Shown here in pieces: positions 6,556 through 57,878 of a DNA stretch of 64,000 bases. Made by a program: the position numbers and the translations under genes. Source of the stretch: Minisyncoccota bacterium. GTDB taxonomy: Bacteria > Patescibacteriota > Minisyncoccia > Phycocordibacterales > DATDWN01. The notes under the pieces were generated by a model. The model was given only the letters and a program-made list of their open reading frames with translations. It was not told where the DNA came from and made no database searches. The stretch covers positions 82,190 to 146,189 of the forward strand of contig JBAYWK010000001.1 in NCBI GenBank assembly GCA_041674105.1. The letters are read 5' to 3'. How positions within the stretch are numbered: position 1 is the stretch's first letter; each line of letters starts with the position of its first letter.

Positions 6556-6865
6556 AAAAATCTAAGTGACGATTTGCGGACAGTAATGAGAAAGGTATCC
6601 TCAACATTGCCCTTCGCTAGTCACCAAAAAAACTTTTTTGACGATTTGGCTATACTATCAGATATCCTTTTTTAAATCAAGTGGCTATATATACTTACTA
6701 TATAGTTATATAATTAAAAACAACTTTCCGAAGAAAGTTGGTTTATGTGGTGTCAGATGCAAGCATCTGATGAAAGAACAGTTGTAGAAATGTTAGTTTT
6801 AAGTTGTGGAGAGAAGTGACCTAGGTCTCTTCTCAAGAACTCATTACCTTTATTACTACATTTAG

Positions 6866-6896
6866 AGTATAATCCTCTCGGCTTTTATTGTCAAAC
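6866..6896 (-). promoter_or_regulatory. sigma70-like promoter (TTGACA-17-TATACT) that launches a 300-nt structured leader into rplC.
   Basis: The minus strand reads gtgtTTGACAataaaagccgagaggatTATACTctaaatg. The leader from 6556 to 6860 contains several hairpins, for example caactttccgaagaaagttg. Confidence 0.45.
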
Positions 6897-6925
6897 ACTA
6901 ACCTGTGGATAACTTAATATAGCAA

Positions 6926-6953
6926 AAAACTGCCACTGGCAGTTTTTTGAAAG
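6926..6953 (-). terminator. Intrinsic terminator after the 92-aa ORF; it is bidirectional.
   Basis: aaaaaactgccactggcagttttttg is a perfect stem flanked by A and T runs. Confidence 0.6.
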
Positions 6954-6958
6954 AACAA

Positions 6959-7237
6959 TCAATCTGTTTTTACTACATAATAAGTATACTTATCTTTCCA
7001 AATTCTAGCAGATTCTTCGACTACTGGTTTAGCCTCAGGATTTAAAGATGTGACACAATTAACCCACTCCTCCGATGTAGTAATGCCTACCACAATAGCC
7101 CTTTGATCTGGAAATACTCTCTCAAAATGATCCGTGATTCCTTTTATTACCTCCCCTACTTGATGTCTAGGATTCCAAGTTATCTGGTCTCCTGTTTCGT
7201 CTTTAGTATTCCAAGATGCAATAACCAACTGTGACAT
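6959..7237 (-). CDS. Hypothetical 92-aa protein inserted between rpsJ and rplC.
   Basis: The ORF is bracketed by two strong hairpin terminators. No family was recognised. Confidence 0.45.
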   Translation of the reverse strand: MSQLVIASWNTKDETGDQITWNPRHQVGEVIKGITDHFERVFPDQRAIVVGITTSEEWVNCVTSLNPEAKPVVEESARIWKDKYTYYVVKTD

Positions 7238-7264
7238 AAAACCTCCTCAAGAGATACTACCACC

Positions 7265-7304
7265 TACAAATACAAAAACCACCCGAAGGTGGTTTTTGTA
7301 TTTG
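7265..7304 (-). terminator. Intrinsic terminator downstream of rpsJ and repeat A1.
   Basis: acaaatacaaaaaccacccgaaggtggtttttgtatttgt has a GC stem ccacc/ggtgg followed by a T-run on the minus strand. Confidence 0.65.
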
Positions 7305-7305
7305 T

Positions 7306-7380
7306 AAGGATTTTTGTTTGAGTTCAAGGCGCCAAGTTTTGTTTTTGACCAAGGTGTATAAAAATACTCCGCGGGAGAAA
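7306..7380. repeat. Repeat family A, copy 1, lying 3' of rpsJ.
   Basis: It shares ttcaaggcNcNaagttttgttt and a 30-nt identical core gaccaaggtgtataaaaatactccgcggga with copy 2 at 15774..15868. Confidence 0.7.
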
Positions 7381-7425
7381 ACAAAACAAGCAACGCAGAA
7401 ATCGAACAAAAAGACTACAAATAAA

Positions 7426-7824
7426 CTACATTATTTTCACGTCGATATTAACTCCTGACGGTAAATTCAAATTTGTTAGAGATTCCATAATTTTTGGAGT
7501 AGGATTTAGGATATCAATGAGCCTCTTATGAACCCTCATCTCAAATTGCTCTCTAGCATTCTTGAAGACAAAAGAAGATCTGTTTACAGTATATTTCTTT
7601 ATTTCAGTAGGTAATGGGATAGGTCCTAAAACTTTGGCATCGTATCTAAGAGCTGTATCCATTATCTGCTTTACAGAAAGATCCAATATCTTGTATTCAT
7701 AAGCTCTAACTCTAATACGAAGTTTAGATATTACATCTGTTTTAGCAGAAGCTTTAGGTGTAGCTACTTTAGTGCTTGGCTTTTTTGCAGTCTTTTCTTT
7801 TGTTTCCTTTTTTGTTGTTACCAT
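7426..7824 (-). CDS. rpsJ: 30S ribosomal protein S10 with a Lys/Thr-rich N-terminal extension.
   Basis: …[13 protein letters not shown]…GPIPLPT…[15 protein letters not shown] is conserved S10. Confidence 0.85.
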
Positions 7825-7882
7825 TTTATTTTATTAAAACTTCCATAATTTGGATGAAATCAGAAGTGGCAATTTGGAAGCT

Positions 7883-9079
7883 TTAGGCTACGATTTTTGT
7901 TACAACTCCCGCACCCACAGTCTTACCTCCCTCTCTGATGGCGAATTTTGTTTTCTCTTCCAAAGCGACAGGAGCTACTAGCTTCACATTGAATGTAACT
8001 GTGTCTCCTGGCATAACCATTTCAACACCTTCATTCAATGTCACATCTCCTGTAACATCAGTTGTTCTGATGTAGAATTGTGGCTTGTAACCAGAGAAGA
8101 ATGGTGTATGTCTTCCTCCTTCTTCTTTCTTCAAAATATAAACCTCGGCTGTAAATTCTGTATGAGGAGTCACAGATTTTGGTTTAGCTAAAACTTGACC
8201 TCTATGAATGTCTTCTTTTTTAGCACCTCTTAGAAGTATTCCGGCGTTGTCTCCGGCTAGACCCTCTTGAAGAGATTTATTGAACATTTCAATACCTGTA
8301 ACTGTATATTTAGCTGTATCTTTAAGTCCGACACATTCTATTTCTTCACCAACCTTAACAGTACCTCTTTCAATTCTTCCTGTTACTACAGTTCCTCTTC
8401 CTTCAATAGAGAAGATGTCTTCAACTGGCATAAGGAAAGGTTTCTCTACATCTCTCTCAGGAATTGGGAAGTAAGTATCCAAAGCATTAGCAAGTTCTAA
8501 AACTTTTTGTGCCCAAGGATCAGTGTTGTCTGCAGATTCCAAAGCTTTTAGACCAGAACCTCTTATAACAGGAGCCTCTTTTCCATCAAAACCTTGTGCT
8601 GTAAGAAGATCTCTGACCTCCTCCTCAACCAAATCAATAAGGTCATTATCGTCAACCATATCACATTTGTTTAGAAATACTATTATTTTTGGCACACCAA
8701 CTTGTTTTGCCAAAAGAACATGCTCTCGAGTCTGAGGCATCACACCATCTGTAGCTGCAACCACAAGCACAGCACCATCCATCTGAGCGGCACCAGTAAT
8801 CATGTTTTTAATATAATCAGCGTGACCTGGAGCATCCACGTGAGCATAGTGACGTGTTGGTGTCGTATACTCGTTGTGAGACAAAGCAATAGTAATACCC
8901 CTTGCTTTTTCTTCTGGAGCTGAGTCAATAGCATCAACTCCTTTTAGTTTCGCTGAATAACCTTCTCCAGCACGAGCTAATACATTTAACATAGCTGCTG
9001 TTAAAGTAGTCTTTCCGTGGTCTACGTGACCAATTGTTCCCACATTTATGTGTGGTTTTGAACGATCAAAATCTGCCAT
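7883..9079 (-). CDS. tuf: Elongation factor Tu.
   Basis: The gene starts at [25 protein letters not shown]. The ORF-finder N-terminal 42 aa are an upstream read-through and were trimmed to the ATG at 9079. Confidence 0.95.
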
Positions 9080-9551: not shown

Positions 9552-12500
9552 TTAGTTTTTTAATAAATGACTTATATTTTCAAAAATATTAGTTTTTGAT
9601 GCTTTAAGTGCTCTCTCGTAAACATTATCAGAAGACCACCAAGAGCCTTCCACTCCTTCATCCAATAAAACCTGCGATCCTTTTTCTGTAATTATTCCAC
9701 TAGCAAAATGTTTGCCATTTAAATATAAATCTGTTTTACCAATTTCATTTGAGACATCTGTTACTGTTTGTATAACCCCTCCTTCAAAAGGAAGTTTGGC
9801 CGGTAAATAGCCTACATTTTTATACCCTTCTACCATCTTATCCATTGCTATATTGAATGCTTTTCTAACTTCTGTGTATACTTTACCCTCTTGGAGTTTA
9901 TCAGCTAAAGCCATAGGATATGCTCCTGGTTTAGGGTCTGAGATCTCTTCCGCTATAGCTTGATTATCATAAACTAGAACTTTTTTACCTTCTAAATCAG
10001 CCAAGCCCACAGTGTGGTTGTCTACGACAAGATTATCTAAAGAAGAAAAAGGTTTACCTCCTATTTCTATAATTTTTGTTTTAGTTTCTATATTTTCTGG
10101 AATATTTGAAATATTTTCCTGTGGAACATCTGGTATTTTGACTTTGCCAGAATCCATATCCACATCCATTGGAGCGGTCTTGCCAATGTATTCCCTTGGC
10201 ACAACTTCTCCTTCAGAATTTATTATCTTACCTTCAAATGAAGATACTTGACCTTTTTGTGAATCAAACAAAACATCTTTATTTCCGTTTAGATGCTCGT
10301 AACTTAAATTACCTTTACTATCTAAAGCCAAAGACTCCCCTTTTAGACCCGCCCCACTTAATTTGTGTTCTGGGTCATACATTCCAAACTCCTCAGCAAG
10401 TTTAGTTGATGGAGTTTCTACGAAGTGTTTTAGATTTTCTGGAACTTTGGCTACATTTCCATATTTTTCCAAAATCTTACCCTTCATTTCATCAAAAGTT
10501 TTTATAAAACCTTTTGATGAAAGCTCTACTTCAACAGTTTCTGGCTTTGCCACTTCAGAAATATTTACTTTTGGAGGTACACTCTCGGCTTGAATAGAAG
10601 GTTTTGAAGTTGGCACATTTTCTGCAGAAACTTTGGCTCCTCCCGCACTAATACTTTCAATAGAATGAAGTAAGGCTCCTGAAGCGACACTTGTTCCTAT
10701 ACCTGCACCCACCATAGCACCCGCTTTCCACAATAATTGTCTTTTCTTTTTGTCTTTTTCACTCTCATAAAAATCTCTGGCTTGTTTTTCTTTTTCAGCA
10801 AAATTATCTTCTGATATATCAGTACCATACTTATTTAAAAATCCTTCTTTTAATTTAGTATTATTTTTATCAAATTTATTTTGCAAAGCCCTACCTGCAA
10901 ATTGAGAAGTTGCTGCTCCCGCTGCTGCCCTCGCAACCCTATATCCTCCATAAGCAGCTACCCCAGCTAAAGGAAGTGCACCAAAAGCAAATGCTCCTGC
11001 TGTAACCAAAGTTGAGGATAGAGCTATTCTTGTAGCTGGATGTAATTTTTGCCATTTTTCCAGAGTTTTAGATAAAATTCCCTTCTCCAAAGGAGGCCTG
11101 CCAGATTCCATTACTTTATTGAATTTATCCATCTCTTGCTCTAAGGCTTTAACCAAATCTTCATTAAAAGAATATTCTCTTGTTTCAGCCGTAATAGCGC
11201 CAGTTAAAATAACTTCTTCTTTTTTTAAACCCTTAGCAAACAAATATCTAGATTTCTCTTTTTTTGCTTCTATATATACTCTCTCTAAACCTTTTAGTTC
11301 TTCTGGAATCTCATCTGATTTTGGCATTTGTTTTTCTACACCCAAATCAAACATTGCTTTAGCAAAAACATTTTTCTTCTGCCTGTGTTTATTCAAGAAT
11401 TCTTTCTTAGCAGAAGCATAATCCTCACGAGCTTTATCCAAGTTTATATCTATTTGTTCAGCTTTTTTAAAAAGTTCTTCAAAGTCATCTACTTCTGTTT
11501 TTTTAGAATTTTCCGGAATAAAAGGAGGAGCTATAATAGTTTCAGCTTTTATATCCAAAATTTGAGGTTCTTTTTGTGCAGGTTTTTCCTGCGGAGGTTT
11601 GGGAGATATAACCTCAGTTGGATTAACAGCCGGTATTTCATCTCTAGCACTTTTATCATTAATATCCTCTTTTGGTGTATAAAATTGGCCAACTTTATCT
11701 AAATCAATCTTTTCTTGCTCCTCCTTTGATATATCTACCACAGGGTATACTCCCCTATCATATAAAGGATCAAACTCTCTTGTACTCTCTTTTGTTTCTT
11801 CGTCTATAACAAAAGATCTTCTTGATTCTCTAGTTTCTTCATCGGGTAAGACTGGGATTTCAAATTGAGAAAGTTTGTTCAACTCTTCATTTTCTTTCAA
11901 GCCAGCAAGGTGATACATCAAATCTTTTTGATCGATATCTATTATTTTTAAATTAAAAGCATCATTTATTTCAGATCTAATCTCATTAAAAGATCTGGCA
12001 AAATCAATACCTTTATGTAGAGGAATAATACTCTCGGATTTTGGTAGACTTTTTTCAATATAATCGAAAAGATAGTTTTTTACTTCACCTAAACTCTTTT
12101 CTTTTGATTCTCTTTGATTGTTCAAAATATCAAAGGAAGGCTCTTTTTTTTCTTGCTCCTCCTTTGATATATCTACCACAGGGTATACTCCCCTATCATG
12201 TAAAGGATCAAACTCTCTTGTACTCTCTTTTGTTTCTTCGTCTATAACAAAAGATCTTCTTGATTCTCTAGTTTCTTCATCGGGTAAGACTGGGATTTCA
12301 AATTGTTGTAACTTTTCAGAATTAAACTCCTTTTTTTGTTCTGCGTATTTTTCATTAGACTCTTTTTCAATATCCTTAACTGTTTTTATAAAAGAATTAT
12401 CTAGCTCTGATTCTGACTCCACTTTTTTTACTGTGAATAAGGGTAAGGGGGAGCTCAATTCTTCAACTATTACATAATCACCTGCTATCTTTTTAACAGT

Positions 12501-13022
12501 GTAAACTTTATTGCTTACTGTCCAAACAACTTTGTCTCCTTTATTAAAATCTAATTTTTCTTCTTCAATTTTAGAAATAGGAATCTTCACCCCTTCTTCT
12601 AAAGGCAACCCCAGGATAGACATCATCTCTCTTTTTTGCTCCTTAGACACAAAGTCAGCCGAGAGGCTGTCTATAAACTTCTCTGCCCCTTCCCTATCTT
12701 TGATATACTGAGCATCAAAAACTAAATATTTTTTATAAGGATTTTCTGGCAGTTTTATTTGTAAATAATTTTTTAGTTCCTTTATAGAACCATCATTTAT
12801 CTCATTATTCTCCACTCTGGTATGCTCGGCAAGTGAGTTCATAGAAAGGTGATGAACATCTTCTTCTTCCACAACAAGTTCTATATCTGAAGGATTTTTA
12901 AATTTTGGGCCATCATACATAGTTTCTATTCTTTCAAGAGAATTCTTTTCAGAAGTTTCTTCTGGAGCGAGTTTAATATCTTCTGTTAGTTTATTATCAA
13001 ATTGTGACGAAAACCTAGGCAT
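9552..13022 (-). CDS. Giant 1156-aa hypothetical protein with charged low-complexity stretches, an internal duplicated 55-aa module and Gly/Ala-rich hydrophobic segments. It is inserted between fusA and tuf.
   Basis: A single intact ORF carries QFEIPVLPDEETRESRRSFVIDEETKESTREFDPL[H/Y]DRGVYPVVDISKEEQEK twice. Segments with GxxxG-like pattern (AGAFAFGALPLAGVAAYGG, AGAMVGAGIGTSVASGALL) may be membrane-embedded. Confidence 0.6.
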   Translation of the reverse strand: MPRFSSQFDNKLTEDIKLAPEETSEKNSLERIETMYDGPKFKNPSDIELVVEEEDVHHLSMNSLAEHTRVENNEINDGSIKELKNYLQIKLPENPYKKYLVFDAQYIKDREGAEKFIDSLSADFVSKEQKREMMSILGLPLEEGVKIPISKIEEEKLDFNKGDKVVWTVSNKVYTVKKIAGDYVIVEELSSPLPLFTVKKVESESELDNSFIKTVKDIEKESNEKYAEQKKEFNSEKLQQFEIPVLPDEETRESRRSFVIDEETKESTREFDPLHDRGVYPVVDISKEEQEKKEPSFDILNNQRESKEKSLGEVKNYLFDYIEKSLPKSESIIPLHKGIDFARSFNEIRSEINDAFNLKIIDIDQKDLMYHLAGLKENEELNKLSQFEIPVLPDEETRESRRSFVIDEETKESTREFDPLYDRGVYPVVDISKEEQEKIDLDKVGQFYTPKEDINDKSARDEIPAVNPTEVISPKPPQEKPAQKEPQILDIKAETIIAPPFIPENSKKTEVDDFEELFKKAEQIDINLDKAREDYASAKKEFLNKHRQKKNVFAKAMFDLGVEKQMPKSDEIPEELKGLERVYIEAKKEKSRYLFAKGLKKEEVILTGAITAETREYSFNEDLVKALEQEMDKFNKVMESGRPPLEKGILSKTLEKWQKLHPATRIALSSTLVTAGAFAFGALPLAGVAAYGGYRVARAAAGAATSQFAGRALQNKFDKNNTKLKEGFLNKYGTDISEDNFAEKEKQARDFYESEKDKKKRQLLWKAGAMVGAGIGTSVASGALLHSIESISAGGAKVSAENVPTSKPSIQAESVPPKVNISEVAKPETVEVELSSKGFIKTFDEMKGKILEKYGNVAKVPENLKHFVETPSTKLAEEFGMYDPEHKLSGAGLKGESLALDSKGNLSYEHLNGNKDVLFDSQKGQVSSFEGKIINSEGEVVPREYIGKTAPMDVDMDSGKVKIPDVPQENISNIPENIETKTKIIEIGGKPFSSLDNLVVDNHTVGLADLEGKKVLVYDNQAIAEEISDPKPGAYPMALADKLQEGKVYTEVRKAFNIAMDKMVEGYKNVGYLPAKLPFEGGVIQTVTDVSNEIGKTDLYLNGKHFASGIITEKGSQVLLDEGVEGSWWSSDNVYERALKASKTNIFENISHLLKN
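11712..11877. repeat. Intragenic direct repeat, copy a, about 165 bp.
   Basis: It is almost identical (1 mismatch seen) to 12150..12315 within the same ORF. Confidence 0.8.
12150..12315. repeat. Intragenic direct repeat, copy b, about 165 bp.
   Basis: See copy a at 11712..11877. Confidence 0.8.
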
Positions 13023-15240: not shown

Positions 15241-15402
15241 AAAATTAAGCAGACAAATAATAATAAATAAAAATTCAGCTCAAAAAAGATTTGTTCCGAA
15301 TACCCCACACTATATACTAAAATGTATTTTGGGGCAATATAGTTTTTGACTACGTTATTGACTTCTGGTCAAATCTAAGTAGTCTTTATTTTGGAGGAGT
15401 TT

Positions 15403-15714
15403 ATGACACTAAAAAAAAGTGCACTGTCGGAGTATGGGCATCTGAGCCCGTGGGAGTTTTTTACAAAAGAAAGGCTTTTAAGGCAAACCAGTAATACTAG
15501 AAGTATCGGGCAGATGATAGCACTGCTTGGCACAAACACAGGCAGACTTGGTATAAAACCTTTTTATTTTATTTGTCAGTGCAGAGGTATCTGCACAATA
15601 AAAGATATTATTGATTACATAAAAAAAGGAAAAAATCTTAGTAGTCTTCCGGGGATGGGCAGAAAGACAGCCAAAGTTTTCATGTCTATCCTATACGAGG
15701 AAGGACTTTTATAA
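15403..15714 (+). CDS. Small helix-hairpin-helix protein resembling the RNA polymerase alpha C-terminal domain. It is encoded antisense between rpsG and fusA.
   Basis: A GGAGG Shine-Dalgarno lies 6 nt before the ATG at 15403; the ORF-finder start was a TTG at 15391. The C-terminus SLPGMGRKTAKVFMSILYEEGLL resembles alpha-CTD NLGRKSLEEVK..LEELGL. The gene has its own downstream hairpin terminator. Confidence 0.45.
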   Translation: MTLKKSALSEYGHLSPWEFFTKERLLRQTSNTRSIGQMIALLGTNTGRLGIKPFYFICQCRGICTIKDIIDYIKKGKNLSSLPGMGRKTAKVFMSILYEEGLL

Positions 15715-15721
15715 AGACACC

Positions 15722-15754
15722 AAAAAGGACTGGTTTACCCAGTCCTTTTTTAAT
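15722..15754. terminator. Bidirectional intrinsic terminator.
   Basis: aaaaaggactggtttacccagtcctttttt. It ends the HhH gene on the plus strand and the rpsL-rpsG transcript on the minus strand. Confidence 0.65.
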
Positions 15755-15773
15755 TTCGTTTGTTTTTGTTTTA

Positions 15774-15868
15774 ATTCAAGGCACGAAGTTTTGTTTATTA
15801 GGATTTTTGAAAAATTTCTAGGCTAATATGAGCATTGTGACCAAGGTGTATAAAAATACTCCGCGGGA
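15774..15868. repeat. Repeat family A, copy 2, lying 3' of rpsG.
   Basis: The core is the same as at 7306..7380, with a 40-nt insertion between the two conserved blocks. Confidence 0.7.
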
Positions 15869-15914
15869 ATAAGCGAAGTATTCAACAAAGAAATTTTTCA
15901 AAAAGACAATAGAC

Positions 15915-16385
15915 TTACCAAGCAAGATGAGCAAAAGCCTTATTAGCCTCAGCCATTTTGTGAGTATTTTCTCTCTTCTTTACAGCTTCACCTTCACCTT
16001 TTGAGGCTAGCATTATTTCTTCAGCAAGTTTTTCAGCCATTTCTACTCCTTTTCTTGCTCTAGCAGCATCAACTATCCATTTCATAGAAAGGTAGTTTCT
16101 TCTCTCTGGTCTAACTTCTCGAGGAATTTGGTAATTTGCACCTCCGACTCTTCTAGATCTTACCTCCATAACAGGTCCTGTATTTTTCAAAGCTGTATCA
16201 AAAATCTCCATTACATCCTCTACCTTTGCTTTTTCTTTTAATTTATCAAAAGATTTGTAAACTATTTTTCTAGCAGTTTCTTTTTGACCTCCAATCATTA
16301 CATAGTTAACGAACTTGGAAACTTTGTCCGAGTTGTAGATATGATCTGGTTTTACTATATTTCTATTTGTTACTTTTCTTCGCAT
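15915..16385 (-). CDS. rpsG: 30S ribosomal protein S7.
   Basis: MRRKVTNRNIVKPD… is conserved S7. Confidence 0.95.
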   Translation of the reverse strand: MRRKVTNRNIVKPDHIYNSDKVSKFVNYVMIGGQKETARKIVYKSFDKLKEKAKVEDVMEIFDTALKNTGPVMEVRSRRVGGANYQIPREVRPERRNYLSMKWIVDAARARKGVEMAEKLAEEIMLASKGEGEAVKKRENTHKMAEANKAFAHLAW

Positions 16386-17814: not shown

Positions 17815-17890
17815 AATTTTAGGGCACACCATAAGTCTTGTTAGACTTTGGCTCAATCTCGCGCCGTCGCGCTCCGAAGTCCCTAAAATT
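17815..17890. repeat. Repeat family B, copy 1, a 76-nt element with a 10-bp terminal inverted repeat.
   Basis: aattttaggg…ccctaaaatt encloses an internal hairpin aagtcttgttagactt and a GC core ctcgcgccgtcgcgctccgaag. An inverted copy lies at 24393..24468. Confidence 0.75.
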
Positions 17891-17931
17891 ATAATGAGAG
17901 AGCGGAGTTTTTTAACAAAACCACATCGAGT

Positions 17932-18020
17932 GTATATGTTTTCTGAAACATTGCGAGCGCGACGGCACGAACACGAGGAATTTTTCAGTAGAAAAATATC
18001 CGTTTTCAGAAAACATATAC
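17932..18020. repeat. 17-bp perfect inverted repeat in the rpmB 5' region that encloses a B-like GC core.
   Basis: gtatatgttttctgaaa … tttcagaaaacatatac. The 55-nt loop contains gagcgcgacggcacga, related to the family-B core. Confidence 0.6.
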
Positions 18021-18121
18021 CGAGATGGGGATTTTGTTATATTAAAAAGCTAAGACGGTTTGAAAATATAAGTACAAAATTGTTTGCTTTTTATAACACT
18101 TATGGTAACATACTTATCACT

Positions 18122-24364: not shown

Positions 24365-24392
24365 TTATATAAAAACTTCATTGAGTCATTAC

Positions 24393-24468
24393 AATTTTGG
24401 AGACTTCGGAGCGCGACGGCGCGAGATTGAGCCAAAGTCTAGCAAGACTTATGGCGTGCTCCAAAATT
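24393..24468. repeat. Repeat family B, copy 2, inverted relative to copy 1 and lying between the convergent HIT and pgk genes.
   Basis: Its reverse complement aligns with 17815..17890 over about 76 nt. The TIR is aattttggag…ctccaaaatt, carrying compensatory substitutions relative to copy 1. Confidence 0.75.
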
Positions 24469-24495
24469 GTGATGAGGAGAAAGAAGTTTTTATGA

Positions 24496-26394: not shown

Positions 26395-26582
26395 TTATAC
26401 CAGACAATTGGCCAAATCAACTTACTCAACAAAACCTATATCTCGGTATATTTTAATAAAAACCTTCAGATTTGTATGAAATCCGACGTGAGAGTTTTAT
26501 AATTTGAAGAGCTTTATTTAAATAAAGTGATGAAAATTCTAAAACTTGGAGCGAGGAGTTCGCCAAATCTGAAGGTTTTTGC

Positions 26583-43596: not shown

Positions 43597-43637
43597 TATT
43601 AAATTATATCAAAAACAGATTCTAACTAGTACGTTTT

Positions 43638-43657
43638 TGTGCGGGTAGGGAGAATCG
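43638..43657. repeat. 20-bp direct duplicate of the 3' end of tRNA-Gly (att-like core).
   Basis: tgtgcgggtagggagaatcg is identical to the 3' terminus of the tRNA-Gly genes at 43826 and 48155. It lies 168 bp from the intact tRNA-Gly(UCC). Confidence 0.75.
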
Positions 43658-43945: not shown

Positions 43946-44130
43946 AGAGCCTATCTCCAATCTCGCATCAGAATAAAATGCCAAAATTTTCAGGCAAAAA
44001 TCAAACTGGAAGCCGAAGTGTATTGATATACAATAAGGATGAAGTGAAGGTTTTTGACGGAAATTTTGCTATTTTAACTAATGAGCTATATTCTTAGCTC
44101 TTTTTTGTGTCGAGATTGGAGATAGGCTCT
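43946..44130. repeat. 20-bp perfect inverted repeat pair enclosing about 145 bp that contain a 39-codon ORF and a hairpin terminator.
   Basis: agagcctatctccaatctcg (43946-43965) pairs with cgagattggagataggctct (44111-44130). The inner ORF at 43978..44097 encodes MPKFSGKNQTGSRSVLIYNKDEVKVFDGNFAILTNELYS. The hairpin gagctatattcttagctc is followed by a T-run. Confidence 0.6.
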
Positions 44131-45377: not shown

Positions 45378-45505
45378 GAAAAACTTAACAGTTTGGATGA
45401 AGTCCTAGGCGGATAAGAAAAATAATTTGAGCCTGCCTTGGATGCGCAGGCTCAAATTATTTTTTGAAATCCAACAACGGAATTCGCCAAACTGTTAAGT
45501 TTTTA
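45378..45505. repeat. Repeat family C, copy 1, a 127-nt element with an 18-bp terminal inverted repeat and an inner 12-bp palindrome.
   Basis: gaaaaacttaacagtttgg…ccaaactgttaagttttt. The inner palindrome is atttgagcctgc-cttggat-gcaggctcaaat. The 3' edge overlaps the stop codon of the minus-strand RNHCP gene. Confidence 0.8.
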
Positions 45506-45811
45506 TTTAAAATTTTTACCATTCTCAGAACTTATCTGAACTATCATCTGAAAATTATCCTCTTTAACAGCCTTATTTGGCTTCTCTAGACCACATTTAG
45601 TGCATTTGTGTATGATTGTGTACTCTTTACCTTTTTTCTCAATTCTGATGGGTTCCATCATACCAAAACAAACAGACTCTCTGTCCCCTGGGTCAATGTC
45701 TACATGTTTAGACCAAAGACAATTTGGACAATGGTTTGTATAACCTGTACCTAAAACCTCGGTTCCGCACTTCTCGCAAACAAAATTTTCTTTTGTACGT
45801 TTGAAAGTCAT
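45503..45811 (-). CDS. RNHCP-domain zinc-ribbon protein.
   Basis: CEKCGTEV…TNHCPNCLWSKHVD…CTKCG. Confidence 0.6.
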   Translation of the reverse strand: MTFKRTKENFVCEKCGTEVLGTGYTNHCPNCLWSKHVDIDPGDRESVCFGMMEPIRIEKKGKEYTIIHKCTKCGLEKPNKAVKEDNFQMIVQISSENGKNFK

Positions 45812-46946: not shown

Positions 46947-47001
46947 GCTTATATTTTAGCAAATTCCTTCAATTGCGCATTATTTTCTTAATTTTCATCT
47001 T

Positions 47002-47050
47002 GTCGGGGCGCCGAGAATCGAACTCGGGCCACATCCCTTCGGGCCACAGA
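47002..47050 (-). repeat. Partial duplicate of the 3' half of tRNA-Pro (variable region, T-arm and acceptor 3' strand).
   Basis: On the minus strand the sequence is …GUGGCCCGAGUUCGAUUCUCGGCGCCCCGAC. It differs from the intact tRNA-Pro by 1-2 nt. Confidence 0.7.
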
Positions 47051-47084
47051 AACATAATATGTTTCTGGAATTATTTGAAACTAG

Positions 47085-47157
47085 GTCGGGGTGCCGAGAA
47101 TCGAACTCGGGCCGCATGTTCCCAAAACATGAATACTACCTCTATACTACACCCCGA
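47085..47157 (-). tRNA. tRNA-Pro (anticodon UGG).
   Basis: CGGGGUGUAGUAUAGAGGUAGUAUUCAUGUUUUGGGAACAUGCGGCCCGAGUUCGAUUCUCGGCACCCCGA. The anticodon loop is UUUGGGA. Confidence 0.85.
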
Positions 47158-47185
47158 CGCAATTTCAAATAATTCCCCAAAAATG

Positions 47186-47210
47186 CATACTACCTCTATA
47201 CTACACCCCG
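47186..47210 (-). repeat. Partial duplicate of the 5' half of tRNA-Pro (acceptor 5' strand, D-arm and anticodon 5' stem-loop).
   Basis: On the minus strand the sequence is CGGGGUGUAGUAUAGAGGUAGUAUGCAUUUUUGGGG…. Confidence 0.7.
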
Positions 47211-47253
47211 AATATAACAATTAGAAGTCTACCATAAATAATATAAATAACAA

Positions 47254-47664
47254 TTACAAGATAATATCTTCTAACATATCTATATCTAAAAGGTTTTTTT
47301 CTTTATCCAAATAGACAGTAATCACATCAAACTGCCAATCTGTTTCATCTGAAACATCTTTTTCTAGTAAATAAGACTGGATTATTCTACTCAGTCTTTG
47401 TAGTTTCCAAGGATGAATATTGTCTTCAGGCCTATATTCATCCTTATTATTCAAATACCCTATTTCACGGGAAACAGTTTTAACTTCAATAAAATGAATA
47501 ACCTCCCCTTTTTTGACAATAATATCTATCTCTCCCCATTTTTTATAATAGTTTCTTTCTATCACTTTGAAACCTTTGTCCTTTATAAATTTACAAGCAA
47601 GATCCTCTCCTTTTACACCTACAATCTGTCTATCTGTTGGATTTTTAATATCCTTGTTATACAT
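47254..47664 (-). CDS. YraN-family (UPF0102) PD-(D/E)xK endonuclease-like protein.
   Basis: …VGVKGEDLACKFIKDKGFKVIERNYY…GEIDIIVKKGEVIHFIEVKT…. Confidence 0.75.
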   Translation of the reverse strand: MYNKDIKNPTDRQIVGVKGEDLACKFIKDKGFKVIERNYYKKWGEIDIIVKKGEVIHFIEVKTVSREIGYLNNKDEYRPEDNIHPWKLQRLSRIIQSYLLEKDVSDETDWQFDVITVYLDKEKNLLDIDMLEDIIL

Positions 47665-47906
47665 GAAACTATTTGTTTAGGTTTAACTTACCCTAAAGTA
47701 TAGCAAATCAAGCCAGGAATTGGCCATTAAGTTTCATGTATAACACTTTAGAGTTTTCACGTGAAACACTTATGTATTTCATTAAAAAAGGACACTAAGA
47801 AAGGCTGTCTGTTTTTGATAAAGCTATATTCAAAGCCATATAATGTTTAATAGACTTAGCGCTTCTCTTATAAGTCTTAAAACTCAAGATCTTGTCCTTA
47901 ATACAC

Positions 47907-56735: not shown

Positions 56736-56862
56736 GAAAAACTTAACAATTTGGATGAAGTCCTAGGCGGATAAGAAAAATGATTTGAGCCTGCCTTGGA
56801 TGCGCAGGTGAAAATTATTTTTTGAAATCCAACAACGGAATTCGCCAAACTGTTAAGTTTTT
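56736..56862. repeat. Repeat family C, copy 2.
   Basis: About 93% identical to 45378..45505. The 3' edge again overlaps the stop codon of a minus-strand gene, the M23 peptidase. Confidence 0.8.
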
Positions 56863-56864
56863 AT

Positions 56865-57878
56865 TTAGAAGGGGTTTTTTCCTCCTCTAACCTCAAAGTG
56901 CAAATGTATTCCAGTAGATTTTCCTGTACTACCCATATATCCAATAGTATCACCTTGGCTTACTTTTTGACCAACGCTTATTGCTGTATTATTTAAGTGG
57001 CCGTACAAAGTCTGAGTTCCATTTGAATGCTTAATAACGATATAAGAACCATAACCCCCATTCCATCCTGAGTTTTTTGAAATAATGACTTCTCCGTCTG
57101 CCGCGGCCATAATCTTGGCATTCAAATAAGAAGCTAGATCTACTCCATTATGACCATGTATTCCCTGAGTCCTTACTCCTCCAACTATAGGTCTTATAAA
57201 ATAACCTGATACAGAAACACTCCCAGATGAAGTTTTAGTATAAAAGCTTGAAGAAGATGTTGTGGTTTTAGTACTTACAGCCAATATTTCACCATCTGGT
57301 ATAAAAATCTTATCCCCAATAGCTATTTTTGAATCTTTTGCTAGATTATTATATTGAAGTATTTCTTCTAGATCACCACTATATTTTTTGGCAATACCTT
57401 GCAAAGTGTCTCCGGACTTAACGGTATGATTTATACCTGATATAGGTAGTATAACAAGCTCTTGTCCAGGGGATATTTGGGTTCCCTTAAGATCGTTTGC
57501 CCAAATAATTGTATTCGTATTTACATTAAAAATCTTAGCTATATCTGAAAGCTTATCTCCTTCACGAACAACATAAACACTAATCTGTCCGTTGTTATAA
57601 ACATATTCTTTACTATCGTAGGGTGTATGAGCTTCTAAAAAAAGAGATGACTCATCTATTATAGAAACGGTTTCTGAAGTAGAAGAAGCTAAAGGTGCTA
57701 CCGCTGCCTGCAAAAGAGCCATATTTTGAGAGTTTGGGTTATTTGTTTCCAAGGCAGAAACATTTGAAGAAAATAAATCTTTTACTACAGAAAAAAAACC
57801 CGCTTCCACAGAAAGAGGTACTATTGCGGATAAGGCAAATATAGAGAAAAACGCAAATCGTGCCTTTATGTTCACCAA
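56865..57878 (-). CDS. Peptidase M23 family protein with two LysM domains.
   Basis: The LysM domains are YVVREGDKLSDIAKIF and HTVKSGDTLQGIAKKY. The M23 motifs are HNGVDLA and GSTGKSTGIHLHFEV. It has a TTG or GTG start. Confidence 0.8.
   Translation of the reverse strand: MVNIKARFAFFSIFALSAIVPLSVEAGFFSVVKDLFSSNVSALETNNPNSQNMALLQAAVAPLASSTSETVSIIDESSLFLEAHTPYDSKEYVYNNGQISVYVVREGDKLSDIAKIFNVNTNTIIWANDLKGTQISPGQELVILPISGINHTVKSGDTLQGIAKKYSGDLEEILQYNNLAKDSKIAIGDKIFIPDGEILAVSTKTTTSSSSFYTKTSSGSVSVSGYFIRPIVGGVRTQGIHGHNGVDLASYLNAKIMAAADGEVIISKNSGWNGGYGSYIVIKHSNGTQTLYGHLNNTAISVGQKVSQGDTIGYMGSTGKSTGIHLHFEVRGGKNPF

Follow-up and report, generated by a model that had tools for sequence, protein, structure and literature searches.

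The window, that is the whole 64,000-nt stretch analysed here, contains a series of minus-strand genes which ORF translation and Pfam identified as rpsL (16807-16391), rpsG (16385-15915), fusA (15240-13099), tuf (9205-7883), rpsJ (7824-7426) and rplC (6555-5944). An earlier note on this DNA had reported a 30-mer repeated at two of these genes. We found that the 30-mer, GACCAAGGTGTATAAAAATACTCCGCGGGA, occurs exactly at 7347-7376 and 15839-15868 on the plus strand, with 0 occurrences expected by chance; the window held no third match at up to 3 mismatches, and 100 shuffles gave 0. A second box, TTCAAGGCNCNAAGTTTTGTTT, is present at 7323-7344 and 15775-15796 (chance expectation 0). On the gene (minus) strand, each 30-mer copy comes immediately after the gene concerned, rpsJ or rpsG, and a hairpin and T-run lie beyond it (7265-7306 and 15722-15750), which confirms the place that had been claimed for them, after a ribosomal protein gene and before a hairpin terminator. 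The description of the sites was accurate but incomplete, since the 30-mer is the apex of a hairpin of ~125 nt. The features of the two sites are as follows.

7426-7824, minus strand: rpsJ, ribosomal protein S10 with an N-terminal extension (PF00338), abutted by element A1
7299-7423, by position the 3'-UTR of minus-strand rpsJ, matched by the covariance model on the plus strand: element A1, a complete hairpin of ~125 nt
7347-7376: A-type apex of A1 (the 30-mer), read on the plus strand as GA-CC-AA-GG-U-GUAU-AAAA-AUAC-U-CC-GC-GG-GA
7322-7336: basal 5' box of A1, GTTCAAGGCGCCAAG, containing the P2 helix half TTC (alignments)
7390-7402: basal 3' box of A1, GCAACGCAGAAAT, containing the P2 helix half GAA (alignments)
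7265-7306, bidirectional: terminator-like short hairpin after A1, a 19-bp perfect stem with A/T-run flanks
15915-16385, minus strand: rpsG, ribosomal protein S7 (PF00177), abutted by element A2
15793-15914: element A2, a complete long hairpin, 0 nt after the rpsG stop codon
15839-15868: A-type apex of A2, identical to the A1 apex
15787-15829: insertion in A2, 41 nt relative to the orthologous L013 copy (alignment, inverted repeat)
15774-15788: orphan ancestral 5' box ATTCAAGGCACGAAG, outside the present A2 hairpin
15722-15750, bidirectional: terminator-like hairpin after A2, conserved in L013

A1 begins 2 nt past the rpsJ stop codon, and the 3' arm (7299-7306) of the terminator hairpin that follows it is also part of its outer stem. 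Covariance model R1 scored A1 at 111.7 bits (7308-7415) and A2 at 111.6 bits (15801-15907). At both sites and on both strands one long hairpin was obtained (z of -4.4 to -7.8 relative to shuffles; for A1, -5.4 on the minus strand and -7.8 on the plus strand). Alignment of A1 with A2 extended the homology far past the 30-mer and showed an insertion of ~40 nt at site 2. This insertion provides a new 5' arm (15804-15819), which pairs perfectly with 15889-15904, and a new 5' box at 15815-15830; apart from it, site 2 and the L013 copy are orthologous over their whole length. The box that the earlier note described as preceding the 30-mer is present at site 2, but as an orphan shifted by 41 nt relative to L013, because the inserted sequence now serves as the 5' arm and the old 5' box has come to lie outside the hairpin.

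The unit of the family is an imperfect hairpin of ~125 nt, described here on the window plus strand (the model strand). Its outer and inner stems vary, whereas the basal boxes and the apex are conserved. The outer stem is followed by a short helix, P2 (UUC/GAA). The basal part consists of a 5' segment of 20-21 nt and a 3' segment of 21 nt, with conserved RAGGCGYGAGC and GCAACAAAGAAAU, and is followed by an inner stem of 4-11 bp and the apex, GA-CC-AA-GG-U-GUAU-loop-AUAC-U-CC-GC-GG-GA. In the modelled fold, the CCGCGG-containing core, which had been suggested to bind protein or RNA, forms conserved internal loops at the tip of the hairpin and would fit a recognition site. All instances folded into one long hairpin, far better than shuffles. 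In a MAFFT alignment of 7 sequences, 88.1% of cells were paired compared with 45-59% when the partner was slid, and 16 pairs were changed on both sides compared with 8.0 +/- 1.7 in shuffles (0/500). The corresponding values for 10 sequences, an alignment that took in copies found without the core pattern, were 88.7% versus 44-61% and 18 pairs versus 8.4 +/- 1.6 (0/500). Compensatory changes affected 17 of 38 pairs in an alignment of the B and C types described below, which also has an invariant U.G. Also, the apical helices covary in relatives, where GG/CC is replaced by GA/UC or GC/GC, and GUAU/AUAC by GUAG/CUAC or GUAC/GUAC. Because covariation exceeds that of shuffles and is also present inside the apical helices, the pairing of the hairpin is under selection. 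No conserved ORF runs through the apex in any frame. A protein-coding reading (plus-strand frame TKVYKNTPRE; TKAYRDTPRE in a GC-rich copy) was rejected, as L015 and L019 have stops in it and indels in the loop put it out of frame; AKVYADTPRE matches in Marinobacterium were chance matches inside a histidine-kinase gene.

R1, which gave ~112 bits on both A sites, also yielded weaker full-length plus-strand matches elsewhere in the window (56746-56854, 45387-45496, 26466-26572 and 43973-44077). The first three of these are hairpins of ~125 nt that have the basal boxes in common (GUCCUAGGCGGAUAAG, CCAACAACGGAAUUCGCC) and carry different apexes. The further members found in the window are listed here.

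45379-45504: element B1, A-family basal module with the B-type apex GAGCCUGCCUUGGAUGCGCAGGCUC (R2, 134.9 bits)
56737-56862: element B2, paralogue of B1 in an unrelated context (R2, 135.3 bits)
26457-26581: element C1, A-family basal module with a C-type apex (R2, 96.9 bits)
7840-7882: remnant in the tuf-rpsJ spacer, outer arms and basal box TTTGGATGAAATC kept and the middle deleted (alignment with L013 and L015)
43973-44077: possible degenerate A-like relative, apex GAAGUGUAU-UGAU-AUACAAUAAGG (R1, 19.3 bits, E ~0.06-0.16)

B1 and B2 are 96% identical over 135 nt. B1 overlaps by 2 nt the stop codon of an RNHCP-domain gene (45503-45811, minus strand), B2 begins 2 nt past the stop of an M23/LysM peptidase gene (56865-57878, minus strand), and C1 lies 1 nt past the stop of a 486-aa unknown gene, upstream of tpiA. 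The B1 outer stem (AAAAAC.../...GUUUUU) is formed by arms 45379-45396 and 45487-45504, which pair at 18/18 positions. B1, B2 and C1 have a T-run at the plus-strand end and stems flanked by an A-run and a T-run; these window copies are probably themselves the terminators. A second model, R2, was seeded with B and C types only, yet it detects two A-type copies from outside its seed, in L010 (49.8 bits) and in L005 (46.4 bits), and so confirms the homology of the A, B and C types. It found no further copy in the window and missed 43973-44077, a weak candidate for an A-like relative. The 64-kb window has 5 clear copies, 1 remnant and 1 doubtful copy, and L015 has 5 copies in 20 kb. Copies are 121-128 nt long with a GC content of 31-53%, and A, B and C apexes occur on one kind of base; base and apex types recombine. 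The view that the outer stems are old terminator stems with the core inserted in the loop was rejected: the B1 and B2 outer stems are common to different loci, and for the B and C types the outer stems can be aligned across genomes. A sliding-window folding census of long hairpins gave new candidates without the boxes and many weak folds in coding regions. Besides, a hairpin of ~91 nt at 47655-47745, with perfect 16-bp outer arms (TGTTATACATGAAACT / AGTTTCATGTATAACA), was observed without the basal boxes of the family.

Public genomes and metagenomes were scanned with a pattern whose loop and mismatch positions were free; invariance at the 20 core positions that it fixed is partly circular, which does not apply to the flanking boxes and the model-based matches. 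An orthologue of site 1 was found in L004, a close relative, a copy upstream of rpsL in L005 (a 'Nomurabacteria' MAG) and a copy after rpsG in L009, a GC-richer relative. In L010 a copy fills the intercistronic gap between pepP and the gene of a membrane protein, its end lying 20 nt short of the following start codon. A contig of ~70% GC (L011 + L008, 49-nt overlap) has a copy between a B12-binding regulator-like gene and an AraC-like gene, homologues of which are convergent and 2 nt apart. Pattern matches L006, L007 and L012 were chance matches inside coding regions. We also took 20-kb neighbourhoods of the str/S10 operons from relatives whose S7 is 92-79% identical. In L013, L015 and L019 the orthologous place after rpsG has an A-type copy, its apex diverged, and in L015 and L019 a B-type copy follows fusA. 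Behind tuf, L013 has a C-type and L015 an A-like copy; L015 has further copies after rpmB and upstream of rpsL. R1 and R2 scans of the L017 str/S10 neighbourhood found no copy. Homologues occur in relatives, in a second CPR class and in a high-GC organism, so that the repeat extends well past a local duplication, the case that the earlier note had set as its refutation. Its suggested tie to ribosomal or translation genes was not supported as a specific one, as homologues follow genes for an M23 peptidase, an RNHCP-domain protein, the 486-aa unknown protein, pepP and, in the GC-rich genome, regulators. Two minor observations concern the relatives. In L015 a HicA/HicB toxin-antitoxin pair (7554-7989) lies directly beside a hairpin element (8017-8137) and rpmB. 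Also, the window S7 is labelled 'Candidatus Paceibacterota' by NCBI and the contig of the relative with 92% S7 identity 'uncultured Candidatus Saccharibacteria' (L004/L013 compared with the window); probably one of these labels is in error.

The gap between stop codon and hairpin base was -5 to +10 nt, with a median of ~1 nt (15 elements). Most of the elements have a short intrinsic-terminator-like hairpin behind them; such short terminators follow A1, A2, the rpsG and rpsJ copies of L013, the rpsG, fusA and tuf copies of L015 and the fusA copy of L019. By position, the elements would be transcribed in the mRNA sense as the 3'-UTR of the upstream gene. Of the 3'-UTR processing or termination element proposed previously, what was supported is an element of the 3'-UTR between stop codon and intrinsic terminator. 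The model strand is antisense to the abutting gene in 11/11 independent stop-abutting copies, including the GC-rich copy, the end of which overlaps the stop of the AraC-like gene; the only copy in opposite orientation, upstream of rpsL, abuts no stop codon. A test of the elements for GC skew and replication orientation was confounded by gene orientation.

Sites differ in occupancy between genomes. At the fusA 3' site an element is present in L015 and L019 but in neither the window nor L013, and one short downstream terminator is common to the window, L013 and L019. In the tuf-rpsJ spacer, L013 has a complete C-type copy and L015 an A-like one, whereas the window has a remnant. Near-identical paralogues, occupied and empty sites, the remnant and module swaps demonstrated spread and turnover of the family by duplication, module recombination, insertion and deletion. 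The elements appear to be, or once to have been, mobile because near-identical paralogues are found in unrelated contexts, the fusA 3' site is either occupied or empty, and L017 is without a copy. No consistent direct repeat indicative of target-site duplication was detected at the fusA 3' site (occupied versus empty) or in the flanks of B1, B2 and C1, where AT-rich sequence would mask a 2-nt TA duplication. No transposase or RAYT-like gene adjoined any copy among the Pfam-labelled neighbours in the stretches examined. The rpsG-3' copies are retained in the orthologous place in 5 genomes. Their identity is 54-62%, slightly above that of rpsG 4-fold sites (45-67%), and is concentrated in blocks between covarying stems; the apex of the L013 copy shows a compensatory GG/CC to GC/GC swap. 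The A apex of L005 is identical at 29/30 positions although S7 identity with the window's host is 61%, and the A apex is also present in the high-GC organism.

An Rfam 15 scan of the window at gathering thresholds reported 4 tRNAs only, and permissive Rfam scans of A1, A2 and B1 gave spurious sub-threshold matches only. Viral contigs, phage records and plasmid records had no match, and the literature searched described no such repeat family and no such structured or non-coding RNA in CPR. Within Rfam, the phage and plasmid collections and this literature, the family is previously undescribed and uncatalogued. It has much in common with ERIC and with MITEs such as Correia, RUP and Nezha (PMC3184786), which are imperfect palindromes of ~105-160 bp that form one long RNA stem-loop, are extragenic and co-transcribed with flanking genes, occur in multiple copies without an internal transposase, differ in presence between related genomes and are conserved in sequence across genera. 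Most of the features by which MITEs are recognised (PMC3184786) were found here: inverted arms flanking a core, small size (for MITEs <200 bp, up to ~400), absence of a transposase gene, a plurality of copies, signs of present or past mobility and folding into a long stem-loop as RNA. Outer arms are complementary in every copy, and their sequences differ between distant copies. Unlike ERIC and MITEs, however, the family has no sequence similarity to them, no demonstrable duplication of TA or another target, and CPR hosts; its outer arms vary and its centre is conserved, the reverse of classical TIR logic, and it has interchangeable apex modules and abuts stop codons in strict orientation.

REPINs persist for long periods and maintain their hairpins by compensatory changes. 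Stop-codon-proximal REPs are said, in work of Liang, Rudd and Deutscher from 2015, to affect translation. REP, BIME and REPIN sequences resemble the family in being mosaic (modular) extragenic palindromes of 3'-UTRs and intercistronic regions. REPs, however, are 20-40 nt long, G+C-rich, have a conserved 5' tetranucleotide and are tied to RAYTs, whereas the elements here are single AT-rich hairpins of ~125 nt with no Y1 transposase among their Pfam-labelled neighbours. REP elements are reported to increase the stability of the mRNA that lies upstream of them (Stern et al. 1988, as cited in PMC3184786). The pneumococcal BOX element is likewise modular (boxA/B/C), and SPRITE is a repeat of ~105 nt that looks like a Rho-independent terminator, comparable with the B and C copies of the window. 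Both are unrelated in sequence and host, and differ from the A types, which lack a T-run and are followed by a separate terminator. A1 and A2 are not intrinsic terminators themselves, since their long stem ends without a U-run and a separate short terminator lies behind it; B1, B2 and C1 do carry U-runs after the stem and may act as terminators. The RPEs of Rickettsia are palindromic repeats of 105-146 bp that persist in reduced genomes, but they often lie in frame inside genes, whereas no coding insertion and no conserved frame was seen here. In phage T7 early mRNAs, hairpins between cistrons are processed by RNase III, and cleavage leaves a protective 3' stem. The T7 hairpins are similarly long, irregular, double-stranded structures with internal loops between genes. 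They are not a repeated mobile family, however.

With regard to the strand on which the elements might function, the model strand folds better in 15/15 elements, by ~9 kcal/mol. It carries two conserved tandem G.A loops and the invariant U.G, 74% of its unpaired positions are purines, and it has 31 Shine-Dalgarno-like 5-mers versus 1 on the mRNA-sense strand. G.U pairs in the non-A types numbered 28 on the model strand versus 5 on the mRNA sense. In the A types G.U versus A.C was balanced in the alignment (9 versus 7), and a strand call from G.U pairs was discarded as not decisive; the A-type MFE folds had 14 G.U pairs on the model strand versus 21 on the mRNA sense. The sigma-70 scan called no promoter-like site preceding the elements on the model strand. 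We infer that only insertions which place the pyrimidine-rich, weaker-folding strand in the mRNA are tolerated beside a stop codon.

Our best explanation, to which we assign a probability of roughly 0.5, is that the elements are a modular multi-copy family of extragenic palindromes in a CPR/Patescibacteria clade, forming REP/ERIC/MITE-like hairpins at mRNA 3' ends. Copies between stop codon and terminator, or between cistrons, would be transcribed with the 3'-UTR of the upstream gene. The long stem would most likely be a 3'-end structure, acting as a barrier to 3'-to-5' exonucleases and/or as an RNase III-type processing site, and would in this way determine how stable the upstream cistron is, whatever the stability of its neighbours. 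Because the base of the stem abuts the stop codon, a terminating ribosome would presumably have to unwind it in part. Selection keeps the pairing and certain loop sequences, as covariation and block conservation show, and the orientation rule would presumably reflect selection against a purine-rich, Shine-Dalgarno-like, stronger-folding strand in the mRNA. Several observations stand against this explanation. No target-site duplication could be established in the AT-rich flanks, the stretches examined showed no transposase or RAYT-like gene, and the outer stems of distant copies lack the conservation that classical TIRs would have. It is the strand opposite the mRNA that has the traits usual in functional RNAs. 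Also, the apex and basal loops are conserved far beyond what would be expected of a neutral selfish repeat: the apex is kept at 29/30 positions at 61% S7 identity, and the rpsG-3' copies are kept across genomes near 4-fold saturation. This points to a sequence-specific function, for which a simple exonuclease barrier would have no need.

It is possible, if doubtful, that the elements are instead a dedicated, non-mobile structured RNA of the 3'-UTR, whose apex and basal loops form a protein or RNA platform, conceivably one that couples translation termination, mRNA decay or localisation, and whose repeat-like behaviour is secondary. Conservation blocks separated by covarying stems, the near-identical apex of distant hosts (29/30; S7 61%), orthologous retention after rpsG in 5 genomes, the compensatory GG/CC to GC/GC swap in a close relative and a stem base that always abuts the stop codon all agree with such an RNA. 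Yet the apex is interchangeable (A, B and C on one base), so that no single apex is essential, copies were lost without replacement (L017; the fusA 3' site of the window), host genes are heterogeneous and the conserved RNA-like features lie on the non-mRNA strand. Rather doubtful, too, is a new functional class of structured RNA, located in the 3'-UTR or in an antisense RNA, whose tandem-G.A apex and basal loops would recognise a widely distributed putative partner; in its 3'-UTR form its action would be coupled to translation termination at the abutting stop, and its conservation would span several CPR lineages and reach at least one high-GC bacterium. It is unlikely that the elements are a small-RNA gene in their own right, or a cis-antisense RNA, read from the window plus strand opposite rpsJ and rpsG. 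Such an RNA would account for the better plus-strand fold (~9 kcal/mol, 15/15 elements), the G.U counts of the non-A types (28 versus 5), the tandem G.A loops, invariant U.G wobble and A-rich loops, and the plus-strand T-run that ends the B and C copies of the window. Nevertheless, the elements have no promoter-like site before them on that strand, where A1 and A2 are instead directly preceded by a terminator hairpin. L010 leaves no room for a promoter, A-type G.U counts favour the mRNA sense (14 versus 21), and the energy gap stems in part from the conserved apex, so that the copies do not give independent values of it.

Quite unlikely is a reading in which the hairpin works as single-stranded DNA for an HUH/Y1-type (RAYT- or IS200/IS605-like) or other recombinase, with the loops serving for recognition and effects on mRNA being incidental. 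REP and IS200/IS605 systems provide a precedent (PMC3184786). The strand-asymmetric conserved features and strict orientation would be explained in this way, as would the occupied and empty sites, the near-identical paralogues and the pairing kept with balanced G.T and A.C in the A types. The template strand of genes co-oriented with replication is not the lagging-strand template. The better-folding strand here is the transcription template and, for such genes, presumably not the lagging-strand template, which argues against this reading, as do the lack of such an enzyme gene beside any copy and the length of the elements (~125 nt), much greater than that of REP or IS200-end hairpins. Finally, it is very improbable that the elements are an antisense promoter (TTGACC...TATAAAAAT) firing into rpsJ and rpsG, as the earlier note had also considered, or a ribosomal protein autoregulatory site that mimics rRNA. 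The words TTGACC and TATAAA do occur on the plus strand, but 8 nt apart instead of 16-18, and the sigma-70 scan called no site on either strand, at 7345-7365 or 15837-15857. Likewise, two copies follow ribosomal protein genes, but others follow non-ribosomal genes (peptidase, RNHCP, pepP, unknown and regulator genes, the last in a GC-rich context), and the element lies 3' of the genes and not in a leader.

CPR/Patescibacteria genomes are very small and streamlined, and the organisms are almost impossible to study genetically; a multi-copy, modular hairpin family would provide a handle on post-transcriptional control and genome plasticity in this group. The family sits in the stop-to-terminator gap of the most highly expressed genes (rpsG, rpsJ, fusA, tuf and rpmB), and models R1 and R2 could seed a new entry for an RNA or repeat family. 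Interest would rise if the apex and basal loops proved to be a recognition platform, or if an opposite-strand RNA exists.

For annotation it matters that the rpsG-fusA and rpsJ-rplC junctions are expanded and variable and interrupt operons commonly taken as contiguous. In this clade, rpsG-fusA is a hypervariable junction (window 15241-15914, L013 10472-11100, L015 10472-11026, L017 10472-18268, L019 10472-12641, L009 203-2062) and looks like an insertion hot spot inside the str operon. In the window it contains an opposite-strand ORF of 107 aa with a weak, sub-threshold helix-hairpin-helix match; ORFs in the relatives are of 101 aa (L013), 1077, 921 and 462 aa (L017), 90 and 131 aa (L019) and 236 and 139 aa (L009), with none in L015. 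The rpsJ-rplC gap measures 870 nt (6556-7425) and includes a 92-aa ORF (6959-7237, minus strand) without a Pfam match and absent from the close relative L004. A strong sigma-70-like promoter (6894 to 6866, TTGACA-17-TATACT) is followed, upstream of rplC, by a hairpin and T-run (6740 to 6721), an arrangement that may be a leader or attenuator of an rplC operon with its own promoter. The fusA-tuf interval (9552-13022) has a 1156-aa ORF without a Pfam match but with an internal direct repeat of 158 nt, 99% identical (11710-11867, 12148-12305); homologues of 957-1300 aa occupy the matching position in relatives, each followed by a DUF5663-like gene of ~95 aa.

Other repeats were also observed in the window. 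A separate GC-rich repeat, GGCTCAATCTCGCGCCGTCGCGCTCCGAAGTC, occurs directly at 17850-17881, inverted at ~24403-24434, inside a 90-nt hairpin (24386-24475), and in part at 17955-17970. A doubtful 156-aa ORF overlaps the region 17850-18030, which is strongly structured; this repeat may represent another repeat or RNA family. At 47059-47211, tRNA-Pro (47084-47156) is located within 35-nt inverted repeats, and its 3' half is duplicated downstream with 92% identity (47119-47157 versus 47173-47211). Other partial tRNA-like duplicates are found at 46988-47036 and 43635-43657.
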